A DNA stretch of 17,515 bases from a virus (lineage: Duplodnaviria; Heunggongvirae; Uroviricota; Caudoviricetes), in IMG/VR virus record IMGVR_UViG_2554235124_000002. One strand, given 5' to 3'. Positions 1 to 17,515 of this stretch are shown here, piece after piece. The notes beneath the pieces were generated by a model. That model was not told where the DNA came from, searched no databases, and saw nothing but the letters and a program-made list of their open reading frames with translations. Position 1 is the first letter of the stretch; every line of letters starts with the position of its first letter. The position numbers and the translations under genes were made by a program.

Positions 1-2467
<2,467 letters not shown>

Positions 2468-2486
2468 TCACGCTCCAGAAACGACA

Positions 2487-2506
2487 AAACCGCCCGGAGG
2501 CGGTTT
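2487..2506 (-). terminator. Terminator-like stem-loop in the I-J intercistronic gap (sense strand AAACCGCC-UCCG-GGCGGUUU followed by a U-rich run)
   Basis: Plus strand 2487-2506 is aaaccgcc cgga ggcggttt, a perfect 8 bp inverted repeat with a 4 nt loop. On the mRNA-sense (minus) strand it is followed by UUUUGUCGUUUCU. Function not established. Confidence 0.4.
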
Positions 2507-2524
2507 CACATAAAACGTTTTTCA

Positions 2525-3198
2525 TCAACGACCAATCACCACAACCTGACCACCGTCCCCCTCGTCTGCCGTGCTGATCTCCTGAGAAACCACCCGCGAC
2601 CCCACGCGCATTTCACCGTACAGAACGGGCAGAACATTGCCCTGGGCAACCATGTTATCCAGTGAGGAGAAATAGGTGTTCTGCTTACCGTTATCCGTAC
2701 TCTGCTGTACGTGGGAGTCCTAGCTTTCGGTGCCAACATCTGCGCCACACCACCAAGCACCATACTGGCACCGAGAGAAAACAGGATACCGGTCATACCA
2801 CCGGCCCCAATGGCTGCCCCCCATGCTGCAAGGGTGGCTCCGGCAGTAAAGAATGATCCGGCAATGGCGGCAGCCCCCAGAACAATCTGGAATACGCCCC
2901 CTGACTTGGCCCCGGCGACTCTGGGAACAATATGAATCACAGCGCCGTCAGGCAGAACCTCATGTAACTGCGCCGTCAACCCGGACGTGCTGACGTCCCG
3001 CCCGGCAATCCGTACCTGATACCAGCCGTCGCTCAGTTTCTGACGAAACGCCGGGAGCTGTGTGGCAAGCGCCCGGATGGCTTCAGCCCCCGTTTTCACA
3101 CGAAGGTCGATGCGGCGGCCAAATCGTTGCAAATCCCCGTAAAGGCAGATGCGTGCCATGCCCGGTGACGCCAGAGGGAGTGTGTGCGTCGCTGCCAT
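2525..3198 (-). pseudogene. I: Tail tip assembly protein I, reading frame disrupted by a frameshift near 2711-2712
   Basis: Track ORF 2536..3198 matches lambda gpI through ...VAQMLAPKARTP (about 162 aa), then reads a non-homologous tail. The lambda-like C-terminus DNGKQNTYFSSLDNMVAQGNV...ISTADEGDGGQVVVIGR-stop is intact in a different frame and ends at 2525, exactly 60 nt before J. The frame switch is about 2 nt after the Pro codon at 2713-2715. Confidence 0.75.
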
Positions 3199-3840
3199 TT
3201 GTCGGTATACCTCTCTCGTTTGCTCAGTTGTTCAGGAATATGGTGCAGCAGCTCGCCATCACCACAGTAAATGGCGGCATGATTCGGCACCGATGAACCA
3301 AAACAGCACAGCAGCACATCGCCCGGTTGTGCTGATGACAACGGCACCTGATACAGCCCTGTGGCCTCCAGATTATCCAGATAGAGATTCTGACCGTGAC
3401 GCCACCAGTCATCCCCGCGATGAAAATCCGGCATCTCAATCCCCGCCAGATGATAAGCATCCCGGAACAGCGTGTAACAGTCCGTCACCCCGTGCTCAAA
3501 GCGCCGCCCGGTAAGATGCGGCACACAGCGGAACTTATGAATCGTCACCCCGGCAGACCAGCCACCACGGCAAATCACTCTGCACCTGCAGCCGCCGGTC
3601 AGCCTCACTCAGCCAGGGCAGACCACCGGGGTGGCTGTGGACCAGCGCCACAATCTCACCCTGCATTTCTGCCCGCAGCCAGTCCTCCGGCGACATACGG
3701 AAATACGCCTCCGGCTCACCGGAGATATTCACGCAGGGAAAATATCTTTCCCCCTCCGGCGTGCTCACCACGAAGCCACACGACTCCGCTGGCGCACATC
3801 GCCGGGCGTGCGCCAGAATCGCTGATTCTGTCTGTGTCAT
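3096..3840 (-). pseudogene. K: Tail tip assembly protein K (N-terminal MPN/JAMM-like domain plus C-terminal NlpC/P60-like domain), split by a +1 frameshift near 3546
   Basis: Track ORF 3535..3840 (101 aa) is the lambda K N-terminal part, with the HSHPGG...SEAD JAMM-like motif, and ends ...PWWLVCRG then DDS-stop. Track ORF 3096..3608 in another frame carries the rest of K from TIHKFRCVPHL... to ...TFV. Read directly: sense CTG GTC TGC CGG GGT GAC GAT TCA TAA, where one extra nucleotide separates the CRG and TIHKF frames. Start is 5 nt after the L stop; the 3' end overlaps the I start by 103 nt, as in lambda. Confidence 0.75.
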
Positions 3841-3845
3841 GGGAT

Positions 3846-4544
3846 TTACTGCGAAAGTTTGTTAATGGAAAGGAAGCCGCCAAAGTTGCCGACGTTATTG
3901 CGGAACTTACAACCGCTCAGGCATTTGCTGCATTTATCCTTCGTGATATCGGACGTCGGCTGATCATATTCATCCGCGACAGCCGGACCGCGATAACCGC
4001 ACTCATCACCGCGATAGGTCCAGGTGCAGGTGTTGGCCAGCATGATACGTCCCGGAAAAACAGCGCCATCCGTTTCCGTCGGCGTGGACAGTACAAAAGA
4101 GGCACTCACCGCGCTCAGTTCGCTGCACTGCTCAATGCGCCAGCGGCTGATCACCTCCTGCTCCGGATCGGCATAACTGTTTCCGTTGACGAAGTTCACC
4201 GCATCCAGAAAACGGGCGTAAACCTTACGCCGGACCACCGTTCCGCCGACCAGACTCTGCAGATCTTCCGCCATCCCGGTGACCATACCGTACAGGTTAG
4301 AAACCGTCAGCGTGGGGCGCGTACTGGTGCCTTTGCCATTCAGTTCAAAACCACTCCCCTGAATGGGATACGGCTGATACTGTCGCCCCTGCCAGGTGAC
4401 CGGCTCACCTTTTTCGTTCTGCTCATTACAGAAAAAATAACGTTCTCCACCGACCTCTGTCAGATCGATTTCCCAGAGCACCACGCTGGCCGACTGCTCC
4501 GCACGGGTGCATTCATTCAGTGTTTCCTGCCGGATATCCTGCAT
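3846..4544 (-). CDS. L: Tail tip assembly protein L (C-terminal cysteine cluster)
   Basis: Track ORF of 232 aa, same length as lambda gpL; sequence MQDIRQETLNECTRAEQSASVVLWEIDLTEVGGERYFF... Start overlaps the M stop by 1 nt, as in lambda. Confidence 0.93.
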   Translation of the reverse strand: MQDIRQETLNECTRAEQSASVVLWEIDLTEVGGERYFFCNEQNEKGEPVTWQGRQYQPYPIQGSGFELNGKGTSTRPTLTVSNLYGMVTGMAEDLQSLVGGTVVRRKVYARFLDAVNFVNGNSYADPEQEVISRWRIEQCSELSAVSASFVLSTPTETDGAVFPGRIMLANTCTWTYRGDECGYRGPAVADEYDQPTSDITKDKCSKCLSGCKFRNNVGNFGGFLSINKLSQ

Positions 4545-4873
4545 CAGTTCACCACCTGTTCAAACTCTGCGCTGAACTCAACACGCAACATACTGACCCG
4601 CGACGACCATTTTGCGCAGGTCACCTTTATCTGCCGCCACCCATAAGGCGGCGTCCACAGAAAGGACTTCCAGCCCCCGTGCTCAGCCAGAAACGACTCC
4701 AGCACCGTGGCCTCCTCACGGGAGACAGAAAGCGTCACGCTGTACGTTTTCAGGTCAGCATTCAGCCCGGCAGGCGCACGCTGAGAATAGCCATCACCAA
4801 AGCGCACCTCCCTGACAGAAGGAACCGAAGCCACATCCATACCGGGTTTCACTTTCCAGCGGAAGGTCTTCAT
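4544..4873 (-). CDS. M: Tail tip protein M
   Basis: Track ORF of 109 aa, MKTFRWKVKPGMDVASVPSVREVRFGDGYSQRAPAGLNADLKTYSVTL..., matching lambda gpM in length and sequence; 4 nt overlap with the H stop. Confidence 0.93.
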   Translation of the reverse strand: MKTFRWKVKPGMDVASVPSVREVRFGDGYSQRAPAGLNADLKTYSVTLSVSREEATVLESFLAEHGGWKSFLWTPPYGWRQIKVTCAKWSSRVSMLRVEFSAEFEQVVN

Positions 4874-7431
4874 CGTCCACCTCCGGAGAACAGACCACCA
4901 TCACGCATCTGTGCCTGAATTTCATCACGGGCACCCTTGCGGGCCATGTCATACACCGCCTTCAGAGCAGCCGGACCTATCTGCCCGTTCGTGCCGTCGT
5001 TGTTAATCACCACATGGTTATTCTGCTCAAACGTCCCGGACGCCTGCGACCGGCTGTCTGCCATGCTGCCCGGTGTACCGACATAACCGCCGGTGGCATA
5101 GCCGCGCATCAGCCGGTAAAGATTCCCCACGCCAATCCGGCTGGTTGCCTCCTTTGTGAAGACAAATTCACCACGGTGAACAATCCCCGCTGGCTCATAT
5201 TTGCCGCCGGTTCCCGTAAATCCTCCGGTTGCAAAATGGAATTTCGCCGCAGCGGCCTGAATGGCTGTACCGCCTGACGCGGATGCGCCGCCACCAACAG
5301 CCCCGCCAATGGCGCTGCCGATACTCCCGACAATCCCCACCATTGCCTGCTTAAGCAGAATTTCTGTCATCATGGACAGCACGGAACGGGTGAAGCTGCG
5401 CCAGTTCTGCTCACTGCCGGTCAGCATCGCCGCCATATTCTGCGCAATACCATCAAAGGTCTGCGCGGCTGCACTTTTAACCTGCGACATACTGTCCGTG
5501 GCGCTCTCTTCCCACTCACTCCAGCCGGACTTCAGGCCTGCCATCCAGCTCCCGCGAAGCTGGTCTTCAGCCGCCCAGGTCTTTTTCTGCTCTGACATGA
5601 CGTTATTCAGCGCCAGAGGATTATCGCCATACTGTTCCTTCAGGCGCTGTTCCGTGGCTTCCCGCGCTGCCTGCCGGTCAGTCAGCCCCCGGCTTTTCGC
5701 ATCAATGGCGGCCCGTTTTGCCCGTTGCTGCTGTGCGAATTTATCCGCCTGCTGCGCCAGCGCGTTCAGGCGCTCCTGATACGTAACCTTGTCGCCAAGT
5801 GCAGCCAGCTGGCGTTTGTACTCCAGCGTCTCATCTTTATGCGCCAGCAGGGATTTCTCCTGTGCAGACAGCTGGCGACGTTGCGCCGCCTCCTCCAGTA
5901 CCGCGAACTGACTCTCCGCCTTCCACAAATCCCGGCGCTGCTGGCTGATTTTCTCATTTGCTCCGGCATGCTTCTCCAGCGTCCGGAGTTCAGCCTGAAG
6001 CGTCAGCAGGGCAGCATGAGCACTGTCTTCCTGACGATCGCCCGCAGACACCTTCACGCCGGACTGCTTCGGCTTTTTCAGCGTCGCTTCATAGTCCTTT
6101 TTCGCCGCCGCCATCAGCGTGTTGTAATCTGCCTGCAGAATTTTCCCGTCCTTCAGGGCCTTATTCAGTTCTTCCTGACGGGCGGCATATTTCTCCAGCG
6201 GCGTCTGCAGCCGTTCGTAAGCCTTCTGCGCCTCTTCGGTATATTTCAGCCGTGACGCTTCAGTATCGCTCTGCTGCTGCGCATTTGTGTCCTGTTGACT
6301 CTGCTGTTCAGCCTTCTTTCGCGCGGCTTCAAGCGCAAGACGGGCCTTTTCACGATCATCCCAGTAACGCGCCCGCGCTTCATCGTTAACAAAATAATCA
6401 TCCTTGCGCAGACTCCAGATGTCGTCCGCTTTCTTAAACGCAGCCTCTGCCTTAATCAGCATCTCCTGCGCGGTATCAGGACGACCAATATCCAGCACCG
6501 CATCCCACATGGATTTGAATGCCCGCGCAGTCCTGTCTGCCCAGGTCTCCAGCGTACCCATGTTCTCTTTCAGGCGGCGGGTCTGGTCATCAAACCCTTT
6601 CGTCGCGGCCTCGTTCGCCGCCTGCAATGCCCCGGCTTCATCGCCGGAACGCTGCAACTGAGCAACATACGCAATCTGCTCCGCCGTCACGTTATGGAAC
6701 TGGCGTGCCATCGCCGTCAACCCCGACGTCGGGTCTGTGGTCAGCTTCCCGAAGGCTTCAGCGACCTTGTCCACCTCCACACCGGATGCAGAGGAGAAAC
6801 GCGCCACACTCTGGCTGATGGACGCAATCTGAGCCTCACCGCTTACCCCCGCCTTAACCAGTGCGCTGAGTGACTCGCTGGTCTGGTTAAACGTCAGCCC
6901 AGCCGCCTGCCCGGCTCTGGACAGGACCAGCATACGATCTGCCGTCAGACCCGACTGATTGCCGGAAAGGACCAGCGTTTTGTTGAAATCGGACAGGGTT
7001 GAGTTGCCCTGATACCAGGCATACGCCAGCGCACCGGTCGCCACCGCCAGCGAGGTGGCCCCGACCATCGGCAGGGTGATCGCACCGGCAAGCCCCCTGA
7101 ACATGGGGATCATCCCGCCGAAGGAGTCCTTCACCTGACCACCCTGTTGCAGCAGGATCAGCCACGGACTTTGCCCGCCTGCAAGCTGCGTGGCCACGTC
7201 GGTGAACTGTGCAGGCAGCATACGCATGGCGGCTTTATACTGCCCGACGGAAATCCCCGCTTTCTGTGCAGCCAGCGCCTGCCGGCTCAGCGACTGTTCA
7301 ACGACTGCCGCTGTTTTTTTCGCATCACTTTCCGTACCGGAAAAATGACGCCTGACTCTGGCCATCTGCTCGTCAAATCTGGCCGCATCCAGACTCAAAT
7401 CAACGACCAGATCGCCTACCGGTTCAGCCAT
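4870..7431 (-). CDS. H: Tail tape measure protein H
   Basis: Track ORF of 853 aa, identical in length to lambda gpH; coiled-coil-rich centre and Gly-rich C-terminal region; start overlaps the T stop by 8 nt, as in lambda. Confidence 0.95.
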   Translation of the reverse strand: MAEPVGDLVVDLSLDAARFDEQMARVRRHFSGTESDAKKTAAVVEQSLSRQALAAQKAGISVGQYKAAMRMLPAQFTDVATQLAGGQSPWLILLQQGGQVKDSFGGMIPMFRGLAGAITLPMVGATSLAVATGALAYAWYQGNSTLSDFNKTLVLSGNQSGLTADRMLVLSRAGQAAGLTFNQTSESLSALVKAGVSGEAQIASISQSVARFSSASGVEVDKVAEAFGKLTTDPTSGLTAMARQFHNVTAEQIAYVAQLQRSGDEAGALQAANEAATKGFDDQTRRLKENMGTLETWADRTARAFKSMWDAVLDIGRPDTAQEMLIKAEAAFKKADDIWSLRKDDYFVNDEARARYWDDREKARLALEAARKKAEQQSQQDTNAQQQSDTEASRLKYTEEAQKAYERLQTPLEKYAARQEELNKALKDGKILQADYNTLMAAAKKDYEATLKKPKQSGVKVSAGDRQEDSAHAALLTLQAELRTLEKHAGANEKISQQRRDLWKAESQFAVLEEAAQRRQLSAQEKSLLAHKDETLEYKRQLAALGDKVTYQERLNALAQQADKFAQQQRAKRAAIDAKSRGLTDRQAAREATEQRLKEQYGDNPLALNNVMSEQKKTWAAEDQLRGSWMAGLKSGWSEWEESATDSMSQVKSAAAQTFDGIAQNMAAMLTGSEQNWRSFTRSVLSMMTEILLKQAMVGIVGSIGSAIGGAVGGGASASGGTAIQAAAAKFHFATGGFTGTGGKYEPAGIVHRGEFVFTKEATSRIGVGNLYRLMRGYATGGYVGTPGSMADSRSQASGTFEQNNHVVINNDGTNGQIGPAALKAVYDMARKGARDEIQAQMRDGGLFSGGGR

Positions 7432-8262
7432 ACCTGACTCCTCCTGCGATCCCTTCTGATACTGTCATCAGCATTACGTCATCCTCCGTCATGTCCGCCA
7501 CATCCGGGGAAGCGGGGATAACTTCATTCCCGTCCGGGCCAAAGCGGACACCTCCGGCAAGCCCTGCCGCTTTCTGCATCAGCACATCATCTTCAGGCTC
7601 TTCATCAGCCTCGCGCCGGTTCAGCAGACTGAAATCCAGCGGATGCATATCCGGATCGCTGAAAAACAGGCTGAGTACGGTGTACGTCAGCCCGGAAAAG
7701 TGCATATCCAGCAGAACATCATGAAAATAATGGGTACTGTAAAAGCGGTGCCAGTCGGCATACTCCGTGGATGACATCCCGGCAAGCATGGCGCGCCAGT
7801 CGGGTCGCCCCATCTCACGCGCCAGTTTCAGGGCAAAACTCAGCTCACCGTCGAACACTTTCCCGCAGAAACAGGCTCTGCAGGCCCGGCGTCCTCTGCC
7901 TGTTCGGGGGCATTATTCACCACAAACTCATACATACCGGACAGCCGGTACACCACGTTTTCAGCATGAGAAATTGCCTCTGTGGGCCAGGTGGTAAGCA
8001 CTTCCTGCTCAATCTGTTTAACGGCTTCATTCATGGAAGGCAGCTGCGTCTTCTTCGGATGGTTATGCCACAGGGACATCGCCACCAGAAACGCGCCGGT
8101 TCTGATGACGTCTTCCACAGTAAACTGCCGGTTGCTGTCGGACCCCGCCGGTTCTGCCTGCCGTTTCATCAGGGCAAGATGCTCAATACGCTGCAGGGCT
8201 GACAGTTCAGAAAGCGTGACGGTCACACCGTTATATTCAAATGATTCGGTTTTCAGGAACAT
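7424..8262 (-). CDS. T: Tail assembly chaperone G-T fusion, made by programmed -1 ribosomal frameshift from G into the T frame
   Basis: T-frame ORF 7424..7858 (144 aa, no independent start context) overlaps the 3' end of G; slippery heptamer G GGA AAG sits at the junction. Classic lambda G/G-T arrangement. Confidence 0.85.
7840..8262 (-). CDS. G: Tail assembly chaperone G
   Basis: Track ORF of 140 aa, MFLKTESFEYNGVTVTLSELSALQRIEHLALMKRQAEP..., ending ...AGKCSTVS; same length as lambda gpG; 15 nt gap after V, as in lambda. Confidence 0.95.
   Translation of the reverse strand: MFLKTESFEYNGVTVTLSELSALQRIEHLALMKRQAEPAGSDSNRQFTVEDVIRTGAFLVAMSLWHNHPKKTQLPSMNEAVKQIEQEVLTTWPTEAISHAENVVYRLSGMYEFVVNNAPEQAEDAGPAEPVSAGKCSTVS
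7858..7864 (-). other. Programmed -1 frameshift slippery heptamer GGGAAAG (G GGA AAG in the G frame)
   Basis: Plus 7856-7864 is cactttccc, so the sense strand reads GGGAAAGTG. In the G frame it is GCG GGA AAG TGT..., in the -1 frame GGG AAA GTG TTC GAC... = the T-frame sequence (track shows MFDGELSF). Confidence 0.85.
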
Positions 8263-8277
8263 CGCTGACTCTCCGGA

Positions 8278-9018
8278 TTAACTGGCGGTGACGGTGATTT
8301 CTGCAACCGCAGCAAACTCACCATTACCAGATACAACCGGAATGTTGACCTTGCCTGCAGCAACACCGTTCACGGTGATGGTCATACCACTGACCGACAC
8401 GGTGGCTTTTGTTTTATCCGCAGACACCGCACGGAAGCTCTTGTCGGTTGCGCCCTCCGGCTGGAATGCCACGGTCAGCGTGGTGCTCTGCCCTTTCACT
8501 ACGGAAGCACTGGCGGGTGTCACCGTCATGCCGGTTGTCGCCGTCACCGTGCTGCGATCTTCTGCCATCGACGGACGTCCCACATTGGTGACCTTCACCG
8601 TGCGGGTAATCACTTCCTTCGCCGTCACCGCCTTACCGATACTGCTGACCCAGCCACGGAACACATCGACCGTGCCGTTCGGGAAGCGGATTTTATAGGC
8701 ACGGGTATCACCTTCATTAAACCACGCCAGCAGCGCCTGCTGCCCCTGCTCTCCGGGCATCCACGCCAGCGTGAAGCTGGTATCTCCGGCAGATTTCTGC
8801 CCCTGCCCGGTCGCAGTCCAGTCCGCATCTTCATCATCGAGATAGCTGTCGTCATAGGACTCAGCGCTCAGTTCGCCGGGCGTCAGGTCTTTAACTTTAG
8901 CCAGACGCGACCAGTCAACGTCTGAAAGCGGATTCGCATAAGGGTCACCGCTCCCCTTATAAACCCACAGGGTGGTCCCGGCACCTTTCACCGGCATTAC
9001 AGGATTTGGTACAGGCAT
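8278..9018 (-). CDS. V: Major tail tube protein V with C-terminal Ig-like (Big_2-type) domain
   Basis: Track ORF 8278..9048 (256 aa); homology to lambda gpV begins at the internal Met [30 protein letters not shown]..., giving 246 aa as in lambda and a 7 nt gap after U. C-terminal ~80 aa are rich in T/V/S, typical of the gpV Ig-like domain. Confidence 0.9.
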
Positions 9019-9025
9019 AGCGTCC

Positions 9026-9421
9026 TCACATTTCATAGGTAATGACATAAGTCAGATCGGCTGAACTCCACAGGCCCGCATCATCGTCGCGCCGGTAGTC
9101 ATAGCCACTGGCCACCATACTGGTGATCAAATCTGACAGTGCCGGGACATCACTCATCACCGGATAAATCCGGGACTCCATCCACGAATCCAGCTCTGAA
9201 TCCGGCACCTGAGCAGGCAGGAAAACTTCAATATGCAGCTCCGCCTGCCAGGTATCGCTGTCCAGCTCTTCGCCCGTGTATTCAGCGCCGGTGAGATAAA
9301 CGGCAACTGCCGGAAAATCCGCCTCATCAAAAACAGCGGGGCGACCATCAAAAAACGTCGCCCCGGTGTCATGCTTCTCCAGTGCATCCAGTACGGCTGC
9401 ACGGAGTTCAGTATGTTTCAT
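9026..9421 (-). CDS. U: Tail terminator protein U
   Basis: Track ORF of 131 aa, [43 protein letters not shown]..., lambda gpU length and sequence; 4 nt overlap with the Z stop. Confidence 0.95.
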
Positions 9422-9996
9422 CGCTTTATTACCATCCTCAGTTGATGCTGCAGCGCATAGCCCAGCTCTTTCGGAAGACGTTCACGCCGTATCCGCTCAA
9501 TATTCTGTTTAAACGCCGTGGTAAGCGGCACCGCCATCGGGATTTTCACCACATCAATGGGGTAACGGTTTTTCCCGGCCACACGCTGCATGACATGCCA
9601 CCGGCCATTTTTCAGTTGCTGAATAAACGCGCCGGGAATACGACGGTTTCCCACCACAAGCACGCTGCCGCCACCTTTCAGGGATGAACGCTGCCCCTTT
9701 TTACGACGCCTGCGTCGGGACAGGACAACCCGCGCGTTACCCAGCCTGATTACGGGCAAATCCCCCCGGTTAACCTTGATTCTGGCCTGCGGATTTTTGA
9801 CCGTGGCCCTTTTCAGCCTGGCCCTTTCCTTTACCAGTTTCCGGCGTACCTTTGTCTCACGGGCAACCTGTGACGCCGACTGCGATATCGCGGATGAAGC
9901 AACGCGGTTAATGGCCATTGCGGCGGCACCGGGCACCGCCGTTCTGCTGATACGGCTGAGGTTTTCAACGGCCTGCTCAAGACCTTTTATGGCCAT
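9418..9996 (-). CDS. Z: Tail completion protein Z
   Basis: Track ORF of 192 aa, MAIKGLEQAVENLSRISRTAVPGAAAMAINRVASSAISQ..., lambda gpZ length and sequence. Confidence 0.95.
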   Translation of the reverse strand: MAIKGLEQAVENLSRISRTAVPGAAAMAINRVASSAISQSASQVARETKVRRKLVKERARLKRATVKNPQARIKVNRGDLPVIRLGNARVVLSRRRRRKKGQRSSLKGGGSVLVVGNRRIPGAFIQQLKNGRWHVMQRVAGKNRYPIDVVKIPMAVPLTTAFKQNIERIRRERLPKELGYALQHQLRMVIKR

Positions 9997-10007
9997 ACAT
10001 CCCCCTT

Positions 10008-10361
10008 TCAGCGGCGACGGTTAACGGCAGGCGGTACGCCCCGCCCAAGCCAGAGATGACAGCTTCCGCCATCATCCGGCGAAACCCGGTCTATCCAGAA
10101 GTTTTCCTCACCGATGGTCAGCGTGTCGCCACGCCGCAGCTGCCGCACATCATCAGTCCGGACAAACAGGGACGGGCTGGAGCCTTCAACGCGCACGCCC
10201 TGTCCGGCATAGCTGATATTTTCAGGGTCATCAAAAACACCACGTATTACTGCGCCGGACTGCTCACCGGATGTCATGGTGGCTGACGTTCCCATGTACC
10301 CGCGTATCGTTTCATCGGCGCGGGCAATGGCAGCATCGAACAGGTTATCGAAATCAGCCAC
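10008..10361 (-). CDS. FII: Head-tail joining protein FII
   Basis: Track ORF of 117 aa, MADFDNLFDAAIARADETIRGYMGTSATMTSGEQSGAVIRGVFDDPENISYAG..., lambda gpFII length and sequence; 11 nt gaps on both sides, as in lambda. Confidence 0.95.
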   Translation of the reverse strand: MADFDNLFDAAIARADETIRGYMGTSATMTSGEQSGAVIRGVFDDPENISYAGQGVRVEGSSPSLFVRTDDVRQLRRGDTLTIGEENFWIDRVSPDDGGSCHLWLGRGVPPAVNRRR

Positions 10362-10372
10362 AGCGCCTCCCG

Positions 10373-10768
10373 TTATTGCATTCTGGCCAGGCCACGCTCT
10401 GTCATTTCAGCTGCCACACCGGCAGAGACACGAAACGCCGTTCCCGGCAGCACAAATGCCACAGCCTCATCCCGCGTGGCGTGAAGTGCATCAGTATGCA
10501 GCGTCACCAGTGCCACAACCGTGACCAGAGCAGCCGTATCAGTCACGGTATCCGGCTGCGCTGATACCACCTCATTTTCATGTCCGGTCAGCGCATTTTC
10601 CGGGCTGACAGACGTGTCCTGACCGGCAGCGTCATCCGTGTCATCAAGCTCCTCTTCCAGCTCTGCCACACGGAGCGCCAGTTCTTCTTTCGTCCCCGTC
10701 AGGCTGACATCACGGTTCAGTTGCTCACCCAGCGACCGGAGACGGGCAATCAGTTCATCTTTCGTCAT
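10373..10768 (-). CDS. FI: DNA packaging protein FI
   Basis: Track ORF 10373..10807 (144 aa); lambda gpFI homology starts at the internal Met MTKDELIARLRSLGEQLNRDVSLTGTKEELALRVAELEEELDD... The ATG at 10766-10768 is preceded by GGAGGAG and gives a 41 nt gap after E, as in lambda. Confidence 0.88.
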   Translation of the reverse strand: MTKDELIARLRSLGEQLNRDVSLTGTKEELALRVAELEEELDDTDDAAGQDTSVSPENALTGHENEVVSAQPDTVTDTAALVTVVALVTLHTDALHATRDEAVAFVLPGTAFRVSAGVAAEMTERGLARMQ

Positions 10769-10789
10769 GGACTCCTCCACAGAGAGAAA

Positions 10790-10807
10790 ATGGCCCCGAA
10801 GGGCCAT
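10790..10807 (-). terminator. Stem-loop immediately after the E stop: 7 bp stem AUGGCCC/GGGCCAU with a C(UUCG)G tetraloop, followed by UUUCUCUCU
   Basis: Plus 10790-10807 is atggccc cgaa gggccat, a perfect 7 bp inverted repeat with a 4 nt loop. On the sense (minus) strand the loop is UUCG closed by C-G; a U/C-rich run follows, then the FI Shine-Dalgarno and start. Confidence 0.45.
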
Positions 10808-10809
10808 GA

Positions 10810-11835
10810 TTACGCCAGTTGAACGGACACGAACTCATCAGGATCAGCCAGCAGCATCAGCGGTGCTGACTGAATCATGGTGAACTCACGCGCCGGATCG
10901 CCGGAGGTCACCCAGTTTTTCGGATAACGGGCAGACGCATTAATACCCTCACGCAATGCATCCGCATCCTGAATACAGCCATAGGTGCGCAGACCGCGAG
11001 CATGAGTGTTACCCAGCACCATCGTGTTGTCCGGCAGGAAGTTCTTTTTGACGCCGTTTTCCACGTACTGTCCGGAATACACGACGATGGCCACATCGCC
11101 ATACATTCCCTTATAAGACACCGCTTTGCCCAAGTCTTTTACCGCTGTCTCCAGCTCGGAATGAGAGCCGCGACGGGTATCCAGCTTCTCCCTGACGGCT
11201 TTGAAGGAACGGAACAGCGCCCAGCCTTTCGGATCAAACACGATGATATTCACCACACCGCTGGCGTTCAGCGCGTAGGCTTCGATATCGTCGGTCGGAT
11301 CATACGTGGACTTGTCACGCTTGCTCCACTCCGTGCCGCCGGACTGCGTGATGTTATTCGCCGCACTGCGGCCCATATCCACCTCAACCGGATCGAAGGC
11401 TTCACCAGTCATGGTATATTTGCCCTTAAGCACGGCAGAAACGGCCTGCATCTCTTCGACCTGAGCAATCGCCAGATCTTCATCAAGCATATTCTGCAGA
11501 ATAATACGACGACGACGGTAAGCCGGGTCAGCCAGATTCTGCGGATCTTCATCCGGCAGGCGACGCAGGGTCATCTGCGGATTCACCTCATGCTTGGGTT
11601 TGACATAACCCGGCGTAAATTCAGAGGTGGAGCCGCCACGGGAGCGGATAACCTCACCGGAAACAATCGGCGAAACGTACAGCGCCATGTTTACCAGTCC
11701 CGGAATTTGTGAGAGATAGACTTTCTCCGTAGTGAAAGGATAGCTCTCACGGAAAAACAGACGCAGAAACAGCGGATCAAACTTAAAGTGATGCTCAGTC
11801 GACGCCAGCAACTCGGCGGTTGTATACACAGACAT
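10810..11835 (-). CDS. E: Major capsid protein E
   Basis: Track ORF 10810..11862 (350 aa); lambda gpE homology begins at the internal Met MSVYTTAELLASTEHHFKFDPLFLRLFFRESYPFTTEKVYLSQIPGLVNMALYVSP..., giving 341 aa as in lambda and a 55 nt D-E gap as in lambda; ATG read at 11833-11835. Confidence 0.92.
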   Translation of the reverse strand: MSVYTTAELLASTEHHFKFDPLFLRLFFRESYPFTTEKVYLSQIPGLVNMALYVSPIVSGEVIRSRGGSTSEFTPGYVKPKHEVNPQMTLRRLPDEDPQNLADPAYRRRRIILQNMLDEDLAIAQVEEMQAVSAVLKGKYTMTGEAFDPVEVDMGRSAANNITQSGGTEWSKRDKSTYDPTDDIEAYALNASGVVNIIVFDPKGWALFRSFKAVREKLDTRRGSHSELETAVKDLGKAVSYKGMYGDVAIVVYSGQYVENGVKKNFLPDNTMVLGNTHARGLRTYGCIQDADALREGINASARYPKNWVTSGDPAREFTMIQSAPLMLLADPDEFVSVQLA

Positions 11836-11848
11836 AAAAAAATCCCAT

Positions 11849-11870
11849 AAAAAAAGCCGCACAGGCGGCC
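11849..11870 (-). terminator. Terminator-like hairpin in the D-E gap: sense GCCGC-CUGU-GCGGC followed by U7
   Basis: Plus 11849-11869 is aaaaaaa gccgc acag gcggc. On the sense (minus) strand this is a 5 bp all-GC stem with a 4 nt loop, followed directly by seven U, then AUGGGA, a second U7, and the E AUG. Confidence 0.45.
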
Positions 11871-11890
11871 TTTAGTGATGAAGGGGAAAA

Positions 11891-12223
11891 TTAAACGATG
11901 CTGATTGCCGTTCCGGCAAACGCGGTCCGTTTTTTAGTCTCGTCGCTGGCAGCCTCCGGCCAGAGCACATCCTCATAACGGAACGAGCCGGACTTGTAGA
12001 ACGTCAGTGTGGTGCTGGTCTGGTCAGCAGCAACCGCAAGAATGCCAACGGCAGCACCGTCGGTGGTGCCATCCCACACAACCAGCTTACGGGTAGAGCC
12101 ATCCAGCATCAGCGGGGTCATTGCAGGCGCTTTCGCACTCAATCCGCCAGGCGCAATTGCGGTATGAGCCGGATCACTGTTACCCAGCGGCTGGTAATGG
12201 GTAAACGCTTCTTTGCTCGCCAT
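11891..12223 (-). CDS. D: Capsid decoration protein D
   Basis: Track ORF 11891..12232 (113 aa); lambda gpD homology (110 aa) starts at the internal Met [43 protein letters not shown]..., which places the start 9 nt after the C stop, as in lambda. Confidence 0.88.
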
Positions 12224-12232
12224 AACTGCCAC

Positions 12233-12640
12233 TTATACCCGTAAAGCTTCAGGTGTATTAAGCAAATCGTTAACGGCATCAGATGCCAGGTTACCTGCAG
12301 CCAGCGGTGCCGGTGCACCCTGCATCAGACGATCCAGCGCAGTGTCACTGCGCGCCTGTGCACTCTGTGGTGCTGCAGCCAGAATGCGGCGGGCCGTTTC
12401 CACGGTCATTCCGGGGGTTTCTGCCAGAACGCGCGCCTGTTCTTCGCGTCCGTGAGCCTCCTCACAGTTGAGGATCCCCATAATGCGGCTGTTTTCTGCC
12501 GCAACCGCTGCGGTGATCTGCGCGTTCACGTCCGGCTGCGCCGCGCTGGCGTTTTCGCCCTCCGTCGCTGGCACCACGTCAGTAACGTCAGCCTGCGAAG
12601 CAGTGGCTGAAACAGTTGTTGATTGAGTCTCTTTGGTCAT
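12233..12640 (-). CDS. Nu3: Scaffolding protein Nu3, in-frame nested gene within the 3' part of C (internal start)
   Basis: In-frame internal ATG at 12638-12640 (MTKETQSTTVSATASQADVTDVVPATEGENASAAQPD...) preceded by a strong AGGAGG at 12645-12650 with a 4 nt spacer. Product is about 135 aa, acidic and Ala/Gln-rich, typical of a disordered scaffold. Lambda encodes Nu3 nested in C in this way. Exact start is uncertain; in-frame Mets further upstream (about 12832 and 12850) lack a good Shine-Dalgarno. Confidence 0.55.
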   Translation of the reverse strand: MTKETQSTTVSATASQADVTDVVPATEGENASAAQPDVNAQITAAVAAENSRIMGILNCEEAHGREEQARVLAETPGMTVETARRILAAAPQSAQARSDTALDRLMQGAPAPLAAGNLASDAVNDLLNTPEALRV

Positions 12641-13544
12641 TCGCCCTCCTGAGAGACGGGATTTACGTGCATCCAGTGCATCACGCATGACGGTGATCGC
12701 ATCGGTGCTGTTAACAAGTTCATCAGCCAGTCCGGCATCAATGGCCTCCTGACCGCTGTACACTGCAGCCTCGGTATCCAGCACAGCCTGCACGGACAGG
12801 CCGGTATATGCCGACACCTTCTGCGCAAACATCCGGCGGGTTGCATCCATCCGGGACTGCAGTGTCTCCCGGACATCATCCGGAAGATGGCTGTAGGGGT
12901 TGCCATCCACCTTATGGCTGCCGCTGTAAATCAGCGTGATTTCCACGCCCTGTTTCTCCAGCGCAGCACCGTAATTACTGTGAGCCATCATGACGCCGAT
13001 GGAGCCTGTCCGGGCGGTCTGCGTGACCAGACGCCGGGAGGCGGCGCTGGCAAGCAGCTGACCTGCACTGCAGTTCATGTCGTTGGCCAGCGCCCATACC
13101 GGCTTTATGTCACGCACACGGGCGATGATGTCAGCACAGTCAAATGCTCCCGCCACCATCCCGCCCGGCGTGTCCATATCCAGCAGAATGCCGTCCACCA
13201 TCGGATCGCTGGCAGCCTGTTGCAGACGGGCGATAATGCCGTTGTAACCGGTCATCCCCGAATACGGCTGCAGCGCCCGCGTCCGGCTGACCAGCGTACC
13301 GGACACCGGCAGCACGGCGATGCCGTTCATGACCTGATAACTGCGGGCCTGTCGTGGTCCGTCATCATCACCGGATAACGCCAGCGCCGCAAGTGCCTCC
13401 TGGGCAGTCAGGCTGTCGCCGGACACCGCATCCGTCAGGCGGCTGATCCCAAGCTGGCCTGCAAGCGCACAAAAGAAAACCCGCGCATAGGCGGGTTCAA
13501 GCATCAGCGGCTCATTAAAGGCCATGCTGGCAATATGCGGGAGA

Positions 13545-13564
<20 letters not shown>
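12233..13564 (-). CDS. C: Capsid assembly (prohead) protease C, S49/ClpP-like serine protease family
   Basis: Track ORF 12233..13699 (488 aa) extends upstream inside B. Lambda gpC homology begins at VTAELRNLPHIASMAFNEPLMLEPAYARVFFCALAGQ..., i.e. a GTG at 13562-13564 that overlaps the 3' end of B by 20 nt as in lambda. This gives 443 codons against the 439 I remember for lambda, so the start or a small indel is uncertain. Confidence 0.8.
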
Positions 13565-17245
<3,681 letters not shown>

Positions 17246-17271
<26 letters not shown>

Positions 17272-17515
17272 TCAGCAACCCCGGTATCAGTTCATCCAGC
17301 GCGGCTGCTTTGTTCATGGCTTTGATGATATCCCGTTTCAGGAAATCAACATGTCGGTTTTCCAGTTCCGGAAAACGCCGCTGCACCGACAGGGGGATCC
17401 CGTCGAGAATACTGGCAATTTCACCTGCGATCCGCGACAGCACGAAAGTACAGAATGCGGTTTCCACCACTTCAGCGGAGTCTCTGGCATTTTTCAGCTC
17501 CTGTGCGTCGGCCTG
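17246..17515 (-). CDS. Nu1: Terminase small subunit Nu1, C-terminal part only; the 5' end of the gene lies beyond the window end
   Basis: Track ORF 17246..17470 gives ...VETAFCTFVLSRIAGEIASILDGIPLSVQRRFPELENRHVDFLKRDIIKAMNKAAALDELIPGLLSEYIEQSG-stop, matching the lambda gpNu1 C-terminus from memory. The frame stays open to the window edge. A full 181 aa Nu1 would start about 275 nt past the window end, so cosB and cosN are not in the window. Confidence 0.88.

Follow-up and report, generated by a model that had tools for sequence, protein, structure and literature searches.

A one-base frameshift in tail gene K of a lambdoid prophage contig is very probably a consensus artefact that merges two common alleles

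The K protein of phage lambda (gpK) is a tail assembly protein with a JAB/MPN domain followed by an NlpC/P60 domain. Iyer et al. (2006, PMC1779556) described this architecture and linked K with the ubiquitin-like protein I. The JAMM motif of the JAB/MPN domain is taken here in the form given in PMC300881, H-S/T-H-x7-S-x-x-D. gpK is necessary for tail assembly, yet it has not been detected in virions (PMC10721106, PMC12617516). The gene has a history of sequence trouble of its own. One G is missing in K near 14266/14267 of the 1982 lambda reference (J02459 / NC_001416; L005, column 159 of our alignment A1), which led to K being annotated as a 199-aa protein starting at an internal ATG, with the JAB domain hidden. 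The missing G is common only to J02459, NC_001416, OR474059 and OR974322; it is present, and K is full length, in resequenced lambda (KT232076, LC730321), in DE3 and in lambda imm21/imm434. The length of about 248 codons that the initial annotation of the DNA described below gives for lambda K is thus right for natural and resequenced lambda, while the 1982 reference is annotated with 199 aa.

The window, i.e. the whole stretch of 17,515 nt analysed here, corresponds in full to contig APNX01000047.1 in the draft E. coli assembly GCA_000387785.2, as found by exact-protein identity, and the RefSeq names of its proteins are WP_019842962 to WP_019842970 (E. coli). The map of open reading frames together with annotated homologous regions of E. 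coli chromosomes gives a lambda-type late operon on the minus strand which from right to left reads Nu1, A, W, B, C, D, E, FI, FII, Z, U, V, G, T, H, M, L, K, I, J. Nu1 is cut at the right end of the contig and J at the left end, and contig ends inside these two genes are what one would expect, since contigs should break at sequences common to several prophages. The placement of K, in the order L-K-I-J and with its 3' end overlapping the start of I, is that of lambda. Apart from K and I the genes of the operon are full length and intact; the G and T reading frames are present with normal length. The features discussed are collected in Table 1.

Table 1. Features of the window (positions counted from its first letter; "-" denotes the minus strand).
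Feature	Position	Strand	Description
Part of J of one type	1..1850	-	LC-1302 type alone, 71/75 informative columns
Stretch of alternating types	1851..17515		Near site-by-site alternation of PSUO2/NC101-type and LC-1302-type late regions, from Nu1 to the start of J
ORF antisense to J	116..1864	+	582 codons; presumed by-product of the composition of J, not a gene
Tail assembly gene I as read	2536..3198	-	220 aa
+2 site in gene I	2699..2716	-	18 nt, against 16 nt in all 69 pattern-matched natural copies
K 3' part	3096..3545	-	TIHKFRCVPHL...AASTFV*; NlpC/P60 domain, other reading frame
K 5' part	3535..3840	-	101 aa, MTQTES...HSHPGGLPWLSEAD...LVCRGDDS*; JAB/MPN (JAMM) domain
+1 site in K	3544..3547	-	Sense GGGG-T-GA-C-GATT

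In an intact K homologue Pfam places the JAB domain at residues 3-104 and the NlpC/P60 domain at residues 111-224 of a single 247-aa protein. The window has no such joint polypeptide of about 247 aa; the domains are found in two open reading frames which are in different frames. The first matches Prok-JAB (PF14464, residues 3-97, E 1.7e-14) and has an intact JAMM motif, HSH-x7-SEAD, within HSHPGGLPWLSEAD. The second matches NlpC/P60 (PF00877, residues 34-147, covering the full profile 1-105, E 6.2e-13). The frame is broken where the two domains meet, within the final residues of JAB. The reading frames and the Pfam matches bear out the split that the initial annotation had described, with the part holding HSHPGG...SEAD running to LVCRG and the remainder, TIHKF...TFV, in the other frame. 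Its reading of the sense strand at the break, CTG GTC TGC CGG GGT GAC GAT TCA TAA, came out the same on rereading, and a GTG does open the second reading frame at 3608; taken mechanically, this reading frame covers 3096-3608 and starts within the JAB coding region. The single extra nucleotide, suspected near 3544-3549, falls at 3547 on the plus strand (sense T) when the window is aligned to lambda-type alleles, and equivalently at 3544 (sense C) when it is aligned to PSUO2-type alleles. The K query is 745 bp long versus 744 bp in every close relative among phages and E. coli chromosomes, with an identity of up to 98.9%. K in the window is an ordinary lambda K homologue, and its two-ORF state is most likely attributable to the assembly and not to the phage.

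The extra base was looked for in other genomes with an 81-bp query across the junction, which matched 4,128 of 5,426 complete E. coli genomes. It is found in none of the 8,064 homologous places, the best of which agree at 80 of 81 positions. An exact 30-mer across the junction has no match in the GTDB species genomes (one genome per species), in IMG/VR or in the JGI metagenome contigs, and the 8-nt form of the K site is in none of 82 other natural copies, of which 80 are IMG/VR loci and the remainder fetched references. Records of the 101-aa product come from APNX01000047.1 only. The comparison with K homologues that the initial annotation had called for, in order to see whether the indel is strain-specific, therefore ends with an indel that is on this contig only.

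Its uniqueness in effect rules out a natural split-gene arrangement, while it fits a private mutation as well as an error. The initial annotation had kept the possibility that two separate polypeptides are made. In such an arrangement the JAB and NlpC/P60 parts would be independent proteins, or K would be recoded by programmed +1 frameshifting. GTG 3608 and GTG 3549 offer possible restarts just upstream of the NlpC/P60 part, and a few phages do have a K homologue with NlpC/P60 only (Iyer et al., 2006, PMC1779556). However, GTG 3608 sits within the JAB coding region, no obvious shift-prone motif is seen on reading the sense sequence at the break, and no conserved two-frame arrangement is found among the K homologues, the split being shared by none of the 8,064 places, none of the 82 copies and no contig of the three collections. 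We give next to no credence to a naturally split or recoded K. The more specific proposal that the extra base is real and the two halves are separately expressed, with a restart at the GTG just before TIHKF, seems to us just as far-fetched. If it were true, this prophage would provide a natural experiment: does tail-tip assembly work only when the two peptidase domains of gpK are fused?

Some observations on related loci should be mentioned. E. coli genomes have a median of 3 places homologous to the K query. Fetched contigs which encode exactly the L or the V protein of the window are 96.8-98.7% identical to it in DNA, and of the three that reach K two have an intact 247-aa gene; no locus among 216 fetched is closer to the window than 98.7% over at least 1.5 kb. 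On the metagenome scaffold L090 (940-1539), whose L protein is identical to that of the window, the product called for K has 199 aa and NlpC/P60 only, and this call may be another K frameshift or a miscalled start site. A cluster of K N-terminal fragments at 90% identity has 1,440 members; many of those sampled (proteins P0002-P0015) are labelled 'partial', have 99-117 aa and stop a few codons past the polymorphic codon 99 (LVCRG(T/A/E)IHKF...), which suggests that contigs of draft assemblies often break just past this codon.

The K site has a length of 7 nt in all 82 natural copies, and it is 8 nt, GGGTGACG, in the window alone. The natural alleles are GGGGGCG (37 copies, Gly-Ala), GGGGACG (25 copies, Gly-Thr, as in lambda), GGGTGAG (18 copies, Gly-Glu) and CGGGGCG (2 copies), and GGGTGACG is the shortest common supersequence of GGGTGAG and GGGGACG. 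The first of these two belongs to the type found in PSUO2 and NC101, called A in the following (locus L069, 100% identical to the prophage of PSUO2, NC101, NGF1 and others), and the second to the type of lambda and of LC-1302-2020, the latter called B (locus L003); A and B are about 3.6% apart. With their surroundings the PSUO2/NC101-type allele is CGGGGTGA-GATT and the lambda/LC-1302-type allele CGGGG-GACGATT, and the site in the window, CGGGGTGACGATT, is a gap-free merge of these two common alleles. In a three-way alignment A (PSUO2) reads CCGGGGTGA-GATT, the window CCGGGGTGACGATT and B (LC-1302) CCGGGG-GACGATT. At codons 98-99 the alleles differ at three adjacent bases, GGT GAG versus GGG ACG, and the window holds both the T at 3547, which is present only in the PSUO2-type allele, and the C at 3544, which is present only in the lambda/LC-1302-type allele.

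These data can be set against the reading that the frameshift is a real single-base insertion, accompanied by a second lesion in I, in a decaying prophage which would make heads but no tail tips. The frameshift is indeed present in the deposited sequence, prophage tail genes often carry frameshifts, those of K and I in decaying prophages included, and as gpK is needed for tail assembly (PMC12617516) a frameshift in K would be inactivating. The insertion would, however, have to fall in the single 3-nt polymorphic cluster of K and to match the other common allele. A rough estimate of the chance that a random insertion hits this cluster and supplies just the base of the other allele is about 1 in 1,000, and the site in gene I, described below, would make the coincidence much less likely still. 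What might mark a pseudogene, an inherited lesion or else IS elements, deletions and stop codons, was not found; the lesion is on this contig only, and the other genes are all intact.

A second frameshift, of +2 and similar in kind to that of K, lies in the adjacent gene I, whose N-terminal Lambda_tail_I/ubiquitin-like part is intact according to Pfam. The last approximately 60 conserved residues are out of frame, so that the protein reads ...APKARTPTYSRVRITVSRTPISPHW... in place of ...APKARTPRTQTTDNGKQNTYFSSLDNMVAQG..., and the natural stop would be at 2525-2527. Alignment to E. coli LC-1302-2020 places two single-base insertions at about 2702 and 2709. The natural 16-nt alleles in the 69 copies fall into two families, and in a hand alignment every base of the window can be traced to one of these families, the source changing eight times in 18 columns; in a MAFFT alignment one column, 2712, is unmatched by either family. 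Among complete E. coli genomes 6,758 places match the I query, the best with 91% identity, and none has the variant of the window; among the matches listed every span is 54 nt versus 56 nt in the query. The exact junction pattern has zero matches in the genome, viral and metagenome collections. Compared with its best complete-genome match, E. coli LC-1302-2020, the window has 97.86% identity and 14 gap openings, and only at two of these places, the K site and the I site, are reading frames disturbed; the remaining indels relative to B are the A (PSUO2) allele.

Both insertions in I and two substitutions there match the alternative allele just as the insertion in K does, and neither the K lesion nor the I lesion is in any other genome, which again argues against real lesions. 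On the other side, the databases have several further I proteins with frameshifts, most of them singletons. Taken together with the surroundings of the two sites, which alternate site by site between two natural types and are without private substitutions, the data leave a real lesion in the strain an improbable reading, to which we would still give more weight than to a split gene. As to the frameshifted I proteins in other assemblies, P0018, P0019 and P0023, their shift sites, back-inferred by hand from the proteins, resemble hybrids between the two I alleles seen here. In P0019, encoded on an ENA contig of 988 kb, apparently the same two bases are inserted, in surroundings purely of PSUO2 type. 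Insertions of this type may reflect a consensus or polishing artefact that recurs at this polymorphic patch, or a rare real allele.

The alternation between the two types is a property of nearly the whole contig. From 1599 to 5045, A and B together account for every column of the window except three inserted bases, 3547, 2712 and 2705. At the 147 sites in these 3.4 kb where the two donors differ, the window always has the base of one donor, and the sites fall in 61-63 runs versus about 72 expected at random. The same search for a best pair of donors was carried out as a control with 58 natural sequences. Those with at most 8 unexplained sites need 2-24 runs, i.e. they are block mosaics, and those with near-random runs have 31-44 private sites; compared with these 58 the window alone joins near-random runs with only 3 unexplained sites. 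A simple tree of three lineages would also give alternation, and the telling feature is therefore the window's want of private substitutions.

Along the contig, positions 1-1850 have 4 sites with the A base only, 71 with the B base only and 1 with neither; positions 1851-8000 have 120, 87 and 1 (an inserted base), respectively; and positions 8001-14000 have 189, 92 and 39. Origin of every base from one of two parents is thus only partly seen in 8001-14000, where the 39 sites are private relative to stand-in references and suggest that these references differ there from the true parents. Beyond 14,000 one private site is listed, 15445. There are about 229 switches between A and B in the 17.5 kb, with a mean tract of roughly 75 bp and many single-site runs, and the run counts per kb are close to random, but the blending is uneven with some long runs, e.g. 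mostly A from 7.5 to 9 kb.

Three 32-mers of the window spanning A/B switches have 0, 0 and 1 match in IMG/VR, the lone match being in a phage with no more than 93% identity to the window; one of the three has 0 matches in the JGI metagenomes, and its A version is matched at least 120 times in IMG/VR. Among about 15 billion proteins, the M, H, G, E and C proteins (WP_019842963, WP_019842964, WP_019842965, WP_019842968 and WP_019842970) are found on no contig but this one, whereas natural variants sampled from the same clusters are on up to 1,000 contigs. Other statistics are less discriminating. The fraction of private 32-mers is 12% in the window versus a panel median of 3%, but several divergent natural loci are higher, so the window is not singled out by it. 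An exact-match parse needs 42 phrases for the window versus 38 for a natural locus whose nearest donor is equally distant, and a copying model with a sparse panel of 83 donors describes the window with 49 scattered mismatches and 3 switches.

A biological process which might produce such a pattern is gene conversion between co-resident prophages, in which patchy repair of heteroduplexes would leave a fine mosaic and bulged bases would be retained at complex sites. Both parental types are apparently represented, since positions 1-1850 are purely B and the 7.5-9 kb region is mostly A, and co-resident copies are common in E. coli, as seen from the median number of K-homologous places per genome. 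But homologous exchange in register cannot alter length, the number of switches is far from the natural block mosaics with their 2-24 runs in 3.4 kb, and no such mosaic is in any complete genome searched. We regard gene conversion as very improbable, more so than a real lesion although not quite as much as a naturally split gene.

The reading that we prefer, and hold with considerable confidence, is that the K frameshift is an artefact of the way in which the consensus of this draft contig was built. The choice offered by the initial annotation was between a mutation and a local sequencing error; the error side of this choice is favoured, although in the form of an allele merge within a contig-wide blend, and a simple local miscall does not fit. 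The sequenced DNA would have held two lambdoid late regions, one PSUO2/NC101-like (A) and one LC-1302-2020-like (B), possibly two co-resident prophages which an overlap-type assembler had collapsed; another possibility is that reads of one type were placed on a reference of the other. With both templates stacked in one alignment and columns called separately, the consensus would hop between A and B at each variant site. An indel-tolerant aligner would write the adjacent multi-base difference in K as one insertion plus one deletion, and if a base is kept in both gap columns the result would be GGGGTGACG, one base too long. The same process at the 16-nt polymorphic patch of I would give +2. We infer this behaviour of the assembler from the merge structure of the sites, the alternation, the want of private substitutions and the uniqueness of the junctions, all of which are observed. 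Parental states alternate by site and not in blocks, and frame-breaking indels occur only at complex parental differences, where they amount to gap-free merges of alleles. A de Bruijn assembler is unable to emit k-mers which are absent from the reads, and an overlap-consensus or mapping pipeline is therefore implied. If the consensus is at fault the reads would carry GGGGTGAGATT or GGGGGACGATT and none of them GGGGTGACGATT, and the true K and I genes of the strain would be intact.

The cell most likely does not carry the frameshift, which would then have little biological weight. The finding is mainly one of data hygiene, as the contig seemingly blends two prophages. If the blend is true, the frameshifted K and I and the unique M, H, G, E and C variants are probably encoded by no organism, and the latter five proteins may be artificial hybrids. 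The I frameshifts in other assemblies which resemble allele merges suggest that false pseudogenes arise repeatedly from complex polymorphisms in prophage genes present in several copies.

The known system closest to the window gene is lambda gpK (TAPK; 'C40 family peptidase' in RefSeq), which has the same place between L and I and the same overlap with I. In DNA the window gene is 97-99% identical to K of many lambdoid phages, and it has the same two domains as lambda gpK, JAB/MPN with an intact JAMM motif and NlpC/P60. The difference is that K as deposited is one base too long and forms two reading frames, while each natural copy examined is a single 744-nt reading frame. The window resembles collapsed-repeat or mixed-template consensus errors in draft assemblies in that two natural parents explain it, with near-random alternation, no private substitutions and indels at merge sites; at the level of reads such errors would show as doubled depth and biallelic pile-ups. 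The programmed -1 frameshift in lambda G/G-T belongs to the same operon and also joins two overlapping frames, but the two reference prophages compared both have an annotated G-T arrangement, whereas the K split is in no relative. The omission in the 1982 lambda sequence is likewise a one-base sequence error in K, but it is a plain miscall, a missing G in the JAB part, whereas the window has a base added at codon 98/99, very probably by the merging of two alleles.
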